This document shows positions 41,985 through 47,179 of a DNA stretch of 64,000 nt, piece by piece. The notes under the pieces were generated by a model, which ran no database searches, was not told the DNA's origin, and saw only the letters and a list, made by a program, of their open reading frames with translations. The stretch is from contig DASRGZ010000224.1 in assembly GCA_035650735.1 (NCBI GenBank), positions 1-64,000 on the forward strand, given 5' to 3'. A program made the position numbers and the translations under genes. This DNA comes from Chthonomonadaceae bacterium. Lineage in GTDB: Bacteria; Armatimonadota; Chthonomonadetes; Chthonomonadales; Chthonomonadaceae. Every line of letters begins with the position of its first letter. The stretch's first letter is position 1.

Positions 41985-42206
41985 CAGAACAAAATTCTCT
42001 CTGGCCGTTCAGAAATAGCTTTGAAAAAGACCAACGTATTGTACCACGAATGCCCCGCGCGACGGCGTGGGAAATCACTTCCCAGAGGATTACTGCACCC
42101 GCCCGGCAGCACAATCGCCGGAACCTGCAGCCTCCGTGCCGTTCCAGCAGGAAAGTCTGTCCCATCGTGCGAAGAAGGAGGTATTCCCCGCACGTGGAGG
42201 CATCTC

Positions 42207-43547
42207 ATGAAAACAGAAACCCTGTTTCTCAGCGCCCTGCTAACCGGCGCGGTCCTCGCCGGGCCGTGCGCAAACGCGGCGCAGAGCGAAACGCCGGAAG
42301 CGCTGAAGCAGAAGATCGAGGCTATGCGCCCCGCCCGGCACGTCTGGCGCGAAATTCAGTGGAAGACCTGCCTGCTGGAAGGGCTGCAAGAGGCGCGCGC
42401 ACGGAATAAGCCCGTGCTGCTGTGGGTCTTCATCCATCACCCGAACGACGAGCGGTGCTGAGTGTTCGCCGGGGCCGTCCGTGAGACGGTCTTTGCGAAC
42501 CCGGAGGTCATCCGTCGGGTCAGGGCCGCTTTCGTGCCTGTCGCCGTGCGGGCGGCAGATATGGAGCAGCCGCGCAGCGATGCAGAAGGGCGGCTCTTTC
42601 AATCCATCCGGCGTTCCCGGCTCGTCCCGCAGGGCCTCGCGATACTGAACAAGGATGGCCAAGTCTTGCAGTGGACCTTGATGTACGACGATAACAAGGC
42701 CGTCCTTGATGCGCTCGACCATGCTTTACAGCGCTTCCGACAGTTCCCGGATGCGAAACAGCCTGTCGTGACAGAACGGTACATGCGCTACCCGTCCCAG
42801 CGCGCGCCCGATTTCAACGAGGAAGCCCGGCCCTCTCCCCAATTGGCCCTCCACACGCCGGATAGTCCCTGCATCAGCAGCCCTCGCCTCCCGGAAGGAA
42901 TACTTGCGGCGCAGGTCATTGGCCGCGCGCTCGACAAGAACGGCCAGTACTCTCCCGATACACGGGCACAGGAACACTACATCGAGGACCAGTTCTCTCT
43001 TCCCCCGGATTTACAGGCGGAGTTGCTGCGCAGATGCGCGCAGGCGGGAACTGAGCGTGTCGAGTTGCCCGAAGGGTTCGCCTGGTTGGTGGCGACTCAC
43101 GCCTACCTAGGGCATCTTGACGTGCAGCCGCTGGATAATCCTCTCGGCGGGCACGAAACCAGGCCGGCGCAGATCAAGTTCTGGGCGCAGCCGATACGTG
43201 CCGACGGCCAACGCAAGACGCTGCGCGTGGAGGGAACTTCGGAGGTCGAAAGCCAGCTAGACCGCCCGGACAGCGGCTTCCTCTACAGCCACAACGTGCG
43301 CCTCGCCTGGGAGGGGTTCATCGAGTTGGACGGCCCCCGAATCCGACGCCTTCTGCTCTCCGCTGAGGGGACGGAAAGGCTCCGGTGGGGTTCTGAGCCG
43401 TTCTTGATGATGGCCCGCACCCAGAGTCCGACAGCCTACCTGCCCGCCGGGCATCCGATCTCTCTGGAGACTGCGGTTCGGTACGGCATCCTCATGGAGC
43501 CGGTCGCCTCAAGCAAGACGCCGCGCGGCCTACCCATTAAGCAGTAA
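42207..43547 (+). CDS. Probable exported selenoprotein with SelN-like Cys-Sec motif (UGA 42459-42461 = Sec85; 446 aa)
   Basis: RBS GGAGG and signal peptide. Both ORFs are in one frame, separated only by TGA. Context NKPVLLW..DERC*VFAGAVRETV, with a SECIS-like hairpin directly downstream. Confidence 0.75.
42464..42500 (+). promoter_or_regulatory. Bacterial SECIS-like stem-loop
   Basis: 16-position stem with one C:U mismatch and three G-U pairs; apical loop CGUGA lies 18 nt after the UGA. Confidence 0.7.
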
Positions 43548-43762
43548 ACGACAGGAAACGGGGTCGGAAATATACGCTTGTCCAGACTCGTCTATCAATA
43601 CTGCGTCCATTGCCAACGACAGGAAACGGGGTCGGAAATATACTTGCCGCAATAGTCGATCCCGGCGCAGGCCCGGACGCAACGACAGGAAACGGGGTCG
43701 GAAATATACCCCTACAAGCACGCCTGCTTGATAGCGTCCCCAATACACGATAGGCAACAGGG
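43547..43762. CRISPR. Orphan CRISPR-like mini-array
   Basis: AACGACAGGAAACGGGGTCGGAAATATAC identical at 43547, 43615 and 43681; degenerate copy at 43746; unique spacers of 39, 37 and 36 nt; no cas genes in the window. Confidence 0.65.
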
Positions 43763-45092: not shown

Positions 45093-45154
45093 GTCCTCCC
45101 TTGAACCGTTTAGGGAAGGGATTTCCCAAATCTGTTATTGAAAGGGTTTCACGT

Positions 45155-47179
45155 TTGGCAGTTCGACTTCAAAAATGGGCGCAAGAGCCGGAGACGCCGA
45201 CCGAGACCGCCTCCATTCGCGCCCGGCCTGCCGGCATCACCCCCCGCGCGCTCCTCATCGGCCTGCTGCTTATTCCCTTGATGTGCTACTGGAACGAGTA
45301 CACGGAAATTGTGGCCGAGGCGACCGACCTGGCGGCGATGTCGCTGATCATCGCGGTGGTGTTCGCCCTGTTCGTGCTGGTGATGCTGAACCTGTTCCTG
45401 AAAAAGTTCTTCCCGCGCTGGGCCTTCACGCAGGCCGAGCTGATGTATATCTATATCATGCAGACCGTCTCGATAGGCATATCGGGCATCGGCATGATCC
45501 AGTTTTTGAATACCTTCCTCGGCAACATCTTCTACTACGGAACCCCCGAAAATCGCTGGAAAGAGACCTTCCTGCCGGCGATACGCGGCTGGCTGCTGCC
45601 CGATGAGTCCGTCATGAAAGCCTACTACATCGGACAGAGCACCTTCTGGAGGTGGGACCATGTTCTCGGCTGGCTCTCGCCCATCCTGGTCTGGTCGGCC
45701 TATATCGTGGTGCTGCTGTGGGTGATGCTCTGCCTGAACGCGCTCATCCGCAAGCAGTGGATGGACCAGGAGCGGCTGAGCTTTCCCATCGTGCAGCTGC
45801 CCCTGGAGATCACGCGCGAGGGCGGCTCGGTGGAGATGTTCACCAGCCGGCAGATGTGGATCGGGTTTTTGATTCCGGTGGTGCTGGAGTCGCTGGCGAG
45901 CCTGAACTATCTGTATCCCTCCATTCCCTTCCTGCCCATCAAGCCGAGCGATCCGCGCCTGAACCTGACTCCCTTCTTCGCCAACAACCCGCCCTGGAGC
46001 GGCGTCGGCGAGCTGGTGCTCGGATTCTATCCGCTGGTTATCGGGCTGACCTACTTCCTGCCTCTGGATGTGGCCTTCTCGCTCTGGTTCTTCTACCTGT
46101 TCGCCAAATTTCAGAACGTGGCGGCGACAGCGCTGGGCTACCACGATCCGGGGGCGAGCCTGGCGATGTCGCGCATCCCGTATGTGGGCGAGCAGTCGGC
46201 GGGGGCGTTCCTGGGCGTGGCCATCTTTGCGTTCTGGGGGATGCGCCGCCATCTCAAGGCAGCGTTTCGGCAGGCCCTCCACCTGGCACGCACCCGCGAG
46301 ATAGACGACGCCAACGAGCCGATGTCCTACCGGCTGGCACTCTTCGGCGGGATGGCCGGGTTCGCGGCGCTGGTCGCCTTCGGCATCGCCATCGGCATGA
46401 GCTGGTACGTGCCGATTGTCTTCTTCTGCCTCTACTACCTCTACGTCATCACGTTCACGCGGATTCGGGCGGAGGCGGGCCTGCCCTGGGGCTTCGGACC
46501 GGACATGAACGTACACGGGCTGATGAAGGCGGGCGTGGGAACGCGGGCGTTTAGCTTCGCGGATCAGGTGGGCCTGCACATGATCCTCTGGCACGATCTG
46601 GATTACCGCTGCACGGAGATGCCCAACCAGTTGGAGGCGATGAAGATCGGAGAGTCGTCGCGGATGAACCTGCGGCATGTGGCCGCCGTGATTGTGCTGG
46701 CGACCATCGTCGGCGCGCTCTCCTCCTGGGCGGCGGTGCTGACCTGCTACTACCAGAACGGCGCGGCGACGGCGAAGGTCAATAGCTGGCGCACCGACAT
46801 GGGCAAGGTGCCCTGGCAGACCCTCAAGGACTGGGTAGACAATCCGACCAAGCCGGACCTGGCCCGCATGGAGGGCGTGGGCATCGGGCTGCTCGCAACG
46901 GCGTTCCTGATGGCGATGCGCTCGCGGTTCACCTGGTGGCCGTTCCATCCCATCGGCTACGCGGTCGCCGGGACGTTTACGATGCACTGGCTCTGGAGCG
47001 CCACCTTGATCGGCTGGCTGATCAAGCTGCTCATCATCCGCTACGGCGGCATGAAGTCCTACCGCCGCTATATCCCGTTCTTCATCGGCCTGATCCTGGG
47101 CGACTACATGACGGGCAGCGTGTGGGCCATTTACGGCTCGATCTTCGGCGTTCGCACCTACCGCGCCTTCCCGATCTGA
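45155..47179 (+). CDS. DUF6785/DUF6784-like polytopic membrane protein (putative transporter)
   Basis: RKQWMDQERLSFP, RIRAEAG, WWPFHPIGY and PFFIGLILG motifs. Confidence 0.75.
   Translation: MAVRLQKWAQEPETPTETASIRARPAGITPRALLIGLLLIPLMCYWNEYTEIVAEATDLAAMSLIIAVVFALFVLVMLNLFLKKFFPRWAFTQAELMYIYIMQTVSIGISGIGMIQFLNTFLGNIFYYGTPENRWKETFLPAIRGWLLPDESVMKAYYIGQSTFWRWDHVLGWLSPILVWSAYIVVLLWVMLCLNALIRKQWMDQERLSFPIVQLPLEITREGGSVEMFTSRQMWIGFLIPVVLESLASLNYLYPSIPFLPIKPSDPRLNLTPFFANNPPWSGVGELVLGFYPLVIGLTYFLPLDVAFSLWFFYLFAKFQNVAATALGYHDPGASLAMSRIPYVGEQSAGAFLGVAIFAFWGMRRHLKAAFRQALHLARTREIDDANEPMSYRLALFGGMAGFAALVAFGIAIGMSWYVPIVFFCLYYLYVITFTRIRAEAGLPWGFGPDMNVHGLMKAGVGTRAFSFADQVGLHMILWHDLDYRCTEMPNQLEAMKIGESSRMNLRHVAAVIVLATIVGALSSWAAVLTCYYQNGAATAKVNSWRTDMGKVPWQTLKDWVDNPTKPDLARMEGVGIGLLATAFLMAMRSRFTWWPFHPIGYAVAGTFTMHWLWSATLIGWLIKLLIIRYGGMKSYRRYIPFFIGLILGDYMTGSVWAIYGSIFGVRTYRAFPI

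Follow-up and report, generated by a model that had tools for sequence, protein, structure and literature searches.

A predicted exported thioredoxin-fold selenoprotein with a vicinal Cys-Sec pair, split at its UGA codon in databases, represents an uncatalogued family of soil bacteria

The DNA analyzed here, referred to as the window, is a stretch of 64,000 nucleotides from a Chthonomonadaceae bacterium (assembly GCA_035650735.1, contig DASRGZ010000224.1, forward strand), and the gene in question lies at positions 42207 to 43547. An open reading frame (ORF) with the start codon ATG at 42207-42209 and the N-terminus MKTETLFLSALLTGAVLAGPCANAAQSE in direct translation runs through ...HHPNDERC into an in-frame TGA at 42459-42461, and the neighboring GTG at 42462 opens 361 further codons in the same frame up to the TAA at 43545-43547. 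With the TGA read as selenocysteine (Sec), the read-through product has 446 residues with Sec at position 85. The original prediction had described this layout, a signal-peptide ORF ending in Cys-TGA followed by 361 in-frame codons, and both the coordinates and the translation agreed with it. Collectively, the results presented below suggested that 42207-43547 is one gene in which the UGA is read as Sec and which encodes an exported redox protein of the cell envelope, a reading to which we assign a probability of about 0.88. The features of the locus, including the hairpin that we take to be its selenocysteine insertion sequence (SECIS), are as follows.

42196..42200, plus strand: Shine-Dalgarno-like GGAGG, 6 nt 5′ of the ATG, read from the sequence
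42207..43547, plus strand: whole coding sequence of 446 codons, with UGA-Sec as codon 85 and TAA at 43545-43547, translated with TGA as U
42207..42278, plus strand: predicted Sec-type signal peptide (Sec here denoting the export route), residues 1-24, proposed from reading the sequence
42336..42761, plus strand: predicted Thioredoxin_7/DsbH-like thioredoxin-fold domain, residues about 44-185
42456..42461, plus strand: predicted active-site dyad Cys84 (TGC) and Sec85 (TGA), from codon and residue conservation and the predicted fold
42464..42500, plus strand: bacterial SECIS hairpin within the coding sequence, from folds, covariation and published bacterial SECIS (bSECIS) criteria
42627..42635, plus strand: Pro141-Gln142-Gly143, likely a cis-proline loop facing the active site, from conservation and its position before strand 143-147
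42762..43514, plus strand: predicted beta-rich C-terminal domain, residues about 186-436, with long antiparallel strands and two helices

The post-TGA half appears as a separate ORF of 361 amino acids in the ORF listing of the window, and the protein database contains exactly this piece (P0002, identical). All 61 protein-database matches span the post-TGA part only, and in 16 of the 17 database homologues that were fetched the first residue is the one right after the TGA. These results bore out the earlier claim that gene callers split the gene. Because the entries are cut at the UGA, the signal peptide and the active-site half are missing from the database copies.

Homologous loci were collected at the DNA level. 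The first protein matches were aligned, and with this alignment as the query 222 stretches were matched in metagenome contigs; 155 of them code for a relative, and the 80 best were retained. Three more loci, all full-length, came from a profile search in 401 genomes of the same phylum, so that 83 loci were examined. Three of the 83 start downstream of the Sec column and 80 reach it; among the 80 are the window's own DNA (L034) and two pairs of duplicates. The column holds TGA in every one of the 80 loci that reach it, and the tblastn matches in the 80 metagenome loci run through the TGA in one frame. The codon before it is TGC in 67 loci and TGT in 12, and in the remaining locus a contig end interrupts this codon, so that Cys precedes the TGA in 79 of 79 readable cases. 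The homologues sharing the TGA range down to 38% protein identity, and the mean column identity of the N-terminal domain is 77% across the TGA. Amino acids are conserved on both sides of it, as in VAWREIAWKSCLLEGLKESRAKNKPVLLWVFIDRPxDDARC-U-VFAGAAREAVFSNPDVIRRVNADFVPVALK, and W47, R48, W52, C55, P69, W73, R83, C84, U85, A88, and R92 are invariant in the 33 full-length sequences. Thus, of the checks proposed in advance, the one for a TGA or Cys conserved at this column was answered by TGA throughout and by a single distant full-length homologue with Cys, described below. Matches were obtained in 11 of the 401 genomes of the phylum sample and full-length family members in only 4, the window's genome included, and a scan of genome contigs with the single window protein returned one weak locus only (L033, residues 50-82, 37% identity). 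One locus (L043, about positions 100-154) carries an extra in-frame stop within strand 1, KPALL*VFIDRP, upstream of the Sec codon, which may be a sequencing error or the mark of a decayed copy.

The same loci bear on the view that two genes are present, the TGA being the true stop of an exported peptide of 84 residues and GTG 42462 the start of an independent protein of 361 residues. Gene callers annotate the locus in this way, P0002 and 60 homologues cover the post-TGA part only, and the codon after the TGA is GTG in 47 of the 80 loci. However, in the other 33 loci the codon is GGG (15), GTC (14), GTA (3), or GTT (1), and therefore translation could not start there. No Shine-Dalgarno-like GGAGG was seen in the 15 nt 5′ of 42462, in agreement with the earlier remark that the downstream ORF has no clear ribosome-binding site. 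Furthermore, a stop at one exact column in 80 of 80 loci, after an invariant Cys, is unlike a gene boundary, and in the predicted model it would fall between strand 1 and helix 1 and so divide one thioredoxin fold. The 361-residue piece would also be without a signal peptide, though its domain is extracytoplasmic in fused relatives, and a distant relative, P0091, is uninterrupted and has Cys at the column. Two separate genes are thus extremely improbable.

The reading of the UGA as Sec gained further support from the RNA that follows it. The original prediction had placed a SECIS hairpin at 42464-42500 with the loop CGUGA 18 nt after the UGA, and folding reproduced it: the UGA with the next 49 nt (52 nt in total) folds at -23.1 kcal/mol with 6+9 base pairs and one bulge in each arm, and the apical loop CGUGA occupies 42480-42484, 18 nt 3′ of the UGA. 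The conserved upper stem consists of nine pairs between 42471-42479 and 42485-42493, among which the apical five are kept above all. In the bSECIS model of PMC13188914, as given in the legend of its Fig. 2A and its SECIS section, the apical loop has 3-9 nt and the upper stem 4-16 bp, one of the first two loop bases is G and the next one G or U, the distance from the UGA is 16-37 nt, and the minimum free energy is -7.5 kcal/mol or lower. The window hairpin falls within all of these bounds, with a 5-nt loop (G at position 2, then U), a 9-bp upper stem, a distance of 18 nt, and -23.1 kcal/mol. An Rfam scan of the whole window gave 0 matches at the gathering score.

Taken alone, the single fold is mildly unusual, as 5 of 200 shuffles of a 66-nt stretch folded equally well (z = -2.19), and it is the comparative data that make the hairpin more than a chance structure. 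These data comprised 73 distinct 72-nt sequences from the homologous loci, in which the nine upper pairs are formed in 89.2% of cells, a share that drops to 43-65% once the 3′ arm is shifted by 1-3 columns. Changes on both sides occur in six of the nine upper pairs (35 cells), and the covariation score of 0.212, compared to 0.130 for shuffles, was reached by none of 500 shuffles. RNAalifold, unaided, recovered the apical five pairs with compensatory changes in each. Some of these changes alter the protein: GCC-GCC...GCG-GTC (Ala-Ala...Ala-Val) is replaced by CTC-ACC...GTG-ATC (Leu-Thr...Val-Ile), and a second such variant reads GCC-GTC...ACG (Ala-Val...Thr). Since the compensatory changes also alter amino acids, the RNA structure constrains the coding sequence. 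The upper stem is therefore conserved with compensatory changes across the 73 sequences, which answers the question of whether the hairpin is conserved.

The genome is equipped for Sec insertion. In its assembly of 6.5 Mb (97.6% complete), selB (368.8 bits), selA (535.7 bits), selD (374.5 bits), and tRNA-Sec (71.7 bits) all scored above curated cut-offs, so that the Sec machinery that the proposal called for is present in full. The selD gene (contig C198:18925-21512 of the window's genome, G000; loci L011 and L014) has a single in-frame TGA of its own, and the tRNA-Sec gene lies about 1.5 kb from it. TGA terminates 15 of the 37 long ORFs in the window, and therefore the genetic code is not reassigned. 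On this comparative evidence, the UGA at 42459-42461 is recoded.

A pseudogene or an assembly error, that is, a recent nonsense mutation or a sequencing mistake, would account for the bare presence of an in-frame stop and for nothing more. Against it, 42150-42750 is identical in four assemblies from three studies, which may include the source sample, at a depth of 11-15, and the TGA, for which support in the raw reads had been asked, is the same in these four independent assemblies. The TGA in 80 of 80 loci down to 38% identity and the strong protein-level conservation in both halves argue in the same direction, and an explanation of this kind can be given almost no weight. The sequencing runs that contain the stretch are labeled as soil and mine metagenomes.

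The protein is predicted to be exported. In a direct reading of the sequence, the signal peptide shows a charged start, then LFLSALLTGAVLAG as its hydrophobic core, and the motif A-N-A ahead of the predicted site of cleavage; homologues have equivalent N-termini that end in AWA-Q. A lipoprotein reading was considered and rejected, as L-A-G-P-C is not a lipobox and the Cys is absent in homologues. An AlphaFold2 model built from a 33-sequence full-length alignment reached a predicted local distance difference test score (pLDDT) of 81 and a predicted template modeling score of 0.78, with residues 1-24 below pLDDT 50. In this model, Cys84-Sec85 lies in the loop between strand 70-75 and helix 86-94, which is the position of the first Cys of CxxC in thioredoxins. 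The second CxxC position is the invariant Ala88 (motif C84-U85-V-F-A88), and no CxxC or CxxS motif is present; from the placement of the dyad and from Ala88, the redox center is therefore taken to be the vicinal Cys-Sec pair. Q142 and G143 are invariant and P141 nearly so in the 33 full-length sequences, and Pro141-Gln142-Gly143 is likely, on the model, to form the cis-proline loop. The thioredoxin fold is closest to DsbH, DsbD-gamma, and AGR structures, and a profile of the wider superfamily matched 3ira in the PDB at E 1.4e-4 and AGR2/3 at about 2e-3. The C-terminal domain has the invariant residues H216, C222, D305, H362, and W368. Comparative data and predicted fold together thus support the original description of a secreted thioredoxin-fold selenoprotein of 446 residues with a long, uncharacterized C-terminal domain; export, the thioredoxin fold, and the placement of the dyad at the active site are predictions.

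A mechanism can be proposed as follows. The hairpin at 42464-42500 would recruit SelB with Sec-tRNA so that the UGA at 42459-42461 is read as Sec, and cleavage of the signal peptide would release the mature protein into the cell envelope. There, the vicinal Cys84-Sec85 would take the place of CxxC at the start of helix 1, with the invariant Ala at the second position, and the pair may cycle between selenol/thiol and selenenylsulfide, a cycle of the kind suggested for the SCUG motif of selenoprotein N and for the terminal GCUG of thioredoxin reductase. The dyad might then reduce or sense an oxidized or metal-loaded partner bound by the beta-rich C-terminal domain.

Further information was provided by more distant relatives. 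P0091 is an uninterrupted protein of 515 amino acids that aligns to read-through residues 9-439 (27% identity, E 1e-43) and reads QC-C-VFTGA opposite RC-U-VFAGA, so that a Cys is aligned to Sec85. Close Cys forms were found in none of the 61 database matches and none of the 80 loci, and a search with P0091 found only P0091 itself. In addition, several sister families from relatives of the same order are exported, follow the same plan, and have one in-frame TGA each, with the motifs RC-U-GGAFALRAGSLS, LERC-U-GYAAGLRAG, GCT-U-NNGVxGRALVFS, and ALC-U-TNARTLRA. One of them, the RC-U-GGA family, has a member in the window's own genome (contig C204:12337-12915; L032:1459-2607), an exported paralogue of 383 codons with the motif GRC-U-GGAFAMRA, whose hairpin loop begins with CGUG like that of the window. 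Its database copies are likewise cut at the TGA, its closest homologues are named Chthonomonadaceae, Armatimonadetes, or Armatimonadota by their sources, and in one NCBI homologue (P0213) the Sec column is occupied by Ser. All 28 Sec-encoding sequences of a joint alignment place their TGA in this column.

The sister families share the two-domain plan and the N-terminal motif W..I.W...KP.LL.. with the window family, but the identity of their N-terminal domains to it is only 19-34%. The window family (family A) is set apart by the motif C-U-VFAGAAREAVFS and by its fusions to LTXXQ or Metal_resist domains, whereas the sister families have many non-Sec members fused to extracytoplasmic function (ECF) sigma factors, FecR domains, or kinases. 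The C-terminal domains of the window and paralogue families are co-linear over 180 columns (hhalign E 7.4e-4). Four further weak matches to the thioredoxin profile, each with one in-frame TGA, were seen in the window's own genome at E 6e-6 to 6e-3 (contigs C170:23964-24158, C64:40365-40565, C72:6855-7214, and C48:19070-19279), and these are candidates for additional thioredoxin-fold selenoproteins.

When 1.84 billion representatives were searched with a profile of the N-terminal domain, 4862 proteins matched at E 0.001 or lower, 653 of them at 1e-10; P0091 was among the matches. Among the 150 matches listed, 143 could be aligned to the profile for a census of the Sec column: 62 start immediately behind the column, 3 stop immediately in front of it, and one is unclear, all of which we regard as split gene calls, and the 77 matches that span it carry Cys (30), Gly (13), Ser (10), Asp (7), or other residues (17). 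The spanning matches include long proteins that are named by their sources as sigma-70 family, FecR domain, or Ser/Thr kinase proteins. Seven non-Sec members (P0066, P0075, P0082, P0139, P0063, P0153, and P0184) stand behind an ECF sigma factor, FecR domain, or Ser/Thr kinase and have Cys, Gly, Ser, or Asp at the column; in the sigma-fused members the order is sigma factor, membrane segment, module. These fusion architectures indicate that the module is often the outward-facing part of signaling proteins, and the fused non-Sec members point to a widespread extracytoplasmic sensor module without a Pfam family. Judging from the residues at the column, the module occurs in versions that appear redox-capable (C-C, C-U) and redox-dead (S-G, T-D).

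The census also bears on whether a standard amino acid (Trp, Gly, Cys, or Arg) is inserted at the TGA through a reassigned code or near-cognate read-through. Two database proteins, P0100 (GRC-W-G) and P0130 (CT-W-NNG), carry Trp exactly at the Sec column, as some pipelines translate it; most likely, this Trp is a TGA translated by the gene caller under another genetic code. But TGA ends 15 of the 37 long ORFs of the window, the Sec system of the genome is complete, and the hairpin covaries and agrees with the bSECIS model. Moreover, the position is redox-active and adjoins an invariant Cys, a Cys stands opposite in P0091, and Cys is the commonest residue at the column in the spanning superfamily matches. 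Decoding as a standard amino acid is accordingly very improbable, and Sec is the preferred assignment.

Clues to the role of this selenoprotein came from the domains and genes around its homologues. The window copy is the minimal two-domain form; most homologues have 640-660 residues, owing to a C-terminal helical extension that is present in about 45 of the 83 loci (tblastn rows with at least 130 aligned residues). The extension corresponds to Pfam LTXXQ (PF07813; CpxP/Spy type) in six of the eight cases tested, one above the cut-off. A subgroup of 10 loci has an N-terminal Metal_resist domain (PF13801) instead of the C-terminal extension, and all three members tested scored above the cut-off of 29.2 (32.1, 43, and 46.5 bits). 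Searches of the PDB with the N-terminal extension returned only CpxP, at a non-significant E of 0.12-0.16. Seven loci have an ECF sigma gene directly upstream in the same orientation, and in one of them (L038) the next ORF, of 129 residues and with a single membrane helix, looks like an anti-sigma factor. The CpxP/Spy-type and Metal_resist domains, the operon of ECF sigma and putative anti-sigma factor, and the signaling fusions of the non-Sec relatives suggest that the family acts in the response to envelope stress, oxidative or metal.

The same observations leave room for the selenoprotein to use its Cys-Sec pair mainly as a ligand for soft metals or metalloids (e.g., Cu(I), Hg, Cd, or As), sensing or sequestering them in the envelope, with the His, Cys, and Asp residues of the C-terminal domain as a second site. 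The Metal_resist subgroup, above its cut-off and behind an ECF sigma gene and a single-pass membrane ORF, would suit such a role, and the order of sigma, anti-sigma, and sensor genes presumably resembles that of cnr-type metal-sensing systems. The invariance of H216, C222, D305, and H362 also fits, as does the replacement of the second CxxC cysteine by an invariant Ala, by which classic dithiol chemistry is absent. However, the fold class of DsbH, DsbD-gamma, and AGR2/3 consists of redox or chaperone-like proteins, domains of the LTXXQ/CpxP type are general envelope-stress chaperones that are not metal-specific, and no metal-resistance gene adjoins the window copy. A role chiefly in metal binding is a serious alternative, though the less likely one, and a redox role remains the preferred reading.

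The neighbors of the window copy, a poly(A) polymerase/CCA-type enzyme, a metallo-beta-lactamase-fold protein, RodA, and a DUF6785 membrane protein, favor neither of the two roles. When the flanking ORFs of loci of at least 3.5 kb were compared all against all, no neighbor was common to the short forms, and the recurring clusters were mostly alternative-frame ORFs of the gene itself. The DUF6785 neighbor (45101-47179 of the window), just downstream of rodA, is a large membrane protein with DUF6785 and DUF6784 (E 1e-157 and 1e-36). At 43546-43709, three direct copies of a 30-nt repeat follow one another with start-to-start distances of 68 and 66 nt and spacers of 38 and 36 nt; the first of them starts within the TAA codon that ends the selenoprotein gene, and these three are the only copies in the whole 6.5-Mb assembly. 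The repeats have CRISPR-like geometry, but they form a tiny, orphan array, and cas genes were not searched for.

Several points weigh against the interpretation of the locus as a gene for an exported redox selenoprotein. First, selenium incorporation is argued from comparative evidence, and no RNA run is listed among the sequencing runs for the window organism. Second, the single-sequence fold of the hairpin is only moderately better than its shuffles (z = -2.19), and the lower stem of 4-6 pairs is specific to the window copy and is not conserved. Third, the window protein scores 20.8 bits with Pfam Thioredoxin_7 (PF13899) and 17.0 bits with Thioredox_DsbH (PF03190), both below the cut-off of 27, structural searches with the C-terminal domain gave no informative match, and the link between this domain and that of the sister family has an hhalign probability of only 25.7%. 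Fourth, the proposed function draws on the fusions and neighbors of homologues, and the window copy itself has no CpxP-like extension (by Pfam and tblastn) and no sigma gene nearby. Finally, the invariant His, Cys, and Asp residues of the C-terminal domain and the Metal_resist fusions would be equally compatible with metal binding and with redox catalysis.

These findings have several implications. For annotation, every copy of the family seen in databases is cut at the UGA, and at least 155 metagenome stretches encode a relative; the family is widespread among soil bacteria and its product is very likely a secreted, selenium-containing redox protein. Some discovery methods start from Cys/Sec pairs, as described in PMC13188914. 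As all close members are Sec forms, methods of this kind would tend to miss the family, and this bias may explain its absence from Pfam, NCBIfam, and the inventory of 119 families discussed below. For chemistry, selenoprotein N, with its unsolved substrate chemistry, has been discussed as having just such a vicinal Cys-Sec pair in the place of CxxC, and a soluble, exported bacterial protein with a dyad of this type is amenable to bench study. For physiology, the fusions and neighbors point to an unexplored link between selenium and envelope-stress signaling in soil Armatimonadota and Planctomycetota. In a broader and rather unlikely view, the gene would found an obligately Sec-dependent branch of a very large extracytoplasmic superfamily of two-domain modules, each a Cys-Sec or Cys-Cys thioredoxin fold with a new beta-rich domain, that act as redox or metal switches and signal to ECF sigma factors and Ser/Thr kinases. 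In this view, the superfamily would also be the bacterial kin of animal selenoprotein N. If true, these bacterial kin would provide soluble models for a human disease protein.

The label "SelN-like" in the original prediction stood in part. Selenoprotein N has a vicinal Cys-Sec pair (SCUG) that is likened to thioredoxin reductase in PMC8584023, an EF-hand and a type II membrane topology with an N-terminal anchor according to PMC10650576, and a near-exclusive use of Sec as stated in PMC7539508. Measured against these descriptions, the window family is similar in its C-U dyad, its oxidizing extracytoplasmic compartment, its near-exclusive use of Sec, and a fold class (Thioredoxin_7) that includes UAS domains. 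The residue before the dyad is Arg rather than the Ser reported for selenoprotein N in these sources, and the dyad is followed by Val in the window copy and by Gly in 15 of 80 homologues; Gly also follows C-U in sister families. Unlike selenoprotein N as so described, the window protein shows no EF-hand in a Pfam scan with E up to 1, and its N-terminus reads as a cleavable signal peptide with an A-N-A site and not as a membrane anchor. Furthermore, its SECIS is a bacterial-type element within the coding region, and its thioredoxin domain comes first. PDB searches with the family and superfamily profiles returned no selenoprotein N entry, none of 20 superfamily match clusters was named selenoprotein N (the names being sigma-70 family, FecR domain, protein kinase, and hypothetical), and none was named SelN among the best 120 of 459 matches of the paralogue search. 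Literature searches found no description of bacterial relatives of selenoprotein N, though supplements could list candidates. What holds is thus a resemblance in the vicinal Cys-Sec pair and a fold of the Thioredoxin_7/UAS class, with the EF-hand and the membrane anchor missing, and membership is not established by the sequences compared.

Unlike the window protein, DsbH/DUF255, DsbD-gamma-like proteins, and AGR2/AGR3 (PDB 3ira, 3f9u, 2ju5, and 3ph9) have no selenocysteine, no vicinal dyad, and no beta-rich C-terminal domain. In Table 1 of PMC13188914, an inventory of 119 families from May 2026, the thioredoxin-fold entries include Sec-thioredoxin, thiol:disulfide interchange protein, Trx7/PDZ (NF041199), and VPGUxxT (NF041383), and the C-U entries are the 2Fe-2S protein, SaoL, HgcA, SaoC, MbdU, and KCU-star, none of them an exported thioredoxin-fold protein. 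The window family is absent from that table, though the supplements could list further candidates, and BSepDB was built from previously reported families, according to PMC13326102. Pfam and NCBIfam gave no match above cut-off for the window protein; with NF041383 (VPGUxxT type 2) it scored 16.2 bits, far from the cut-off of 275. Like the known bacterial thioredoxin-fold selenoproteins, it has an in-frame UGA at a redox position, a bSECIS just downstream, the Sec machinery in its genome, and a gene that is split by gene callers. Unlike them, it carries a vicinal C-U, with Ala in the second CxxC position, in place of UxxC or CxxU, it has an extra beta-rich domain of 250 residues, and its family has no close Cys forms and one distant Cys form. 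A thioredoxin-fold bacterial selenoprotein is therefore of a well-known kind, whereas the family to which the window protein belongs is new and uncatalogued.

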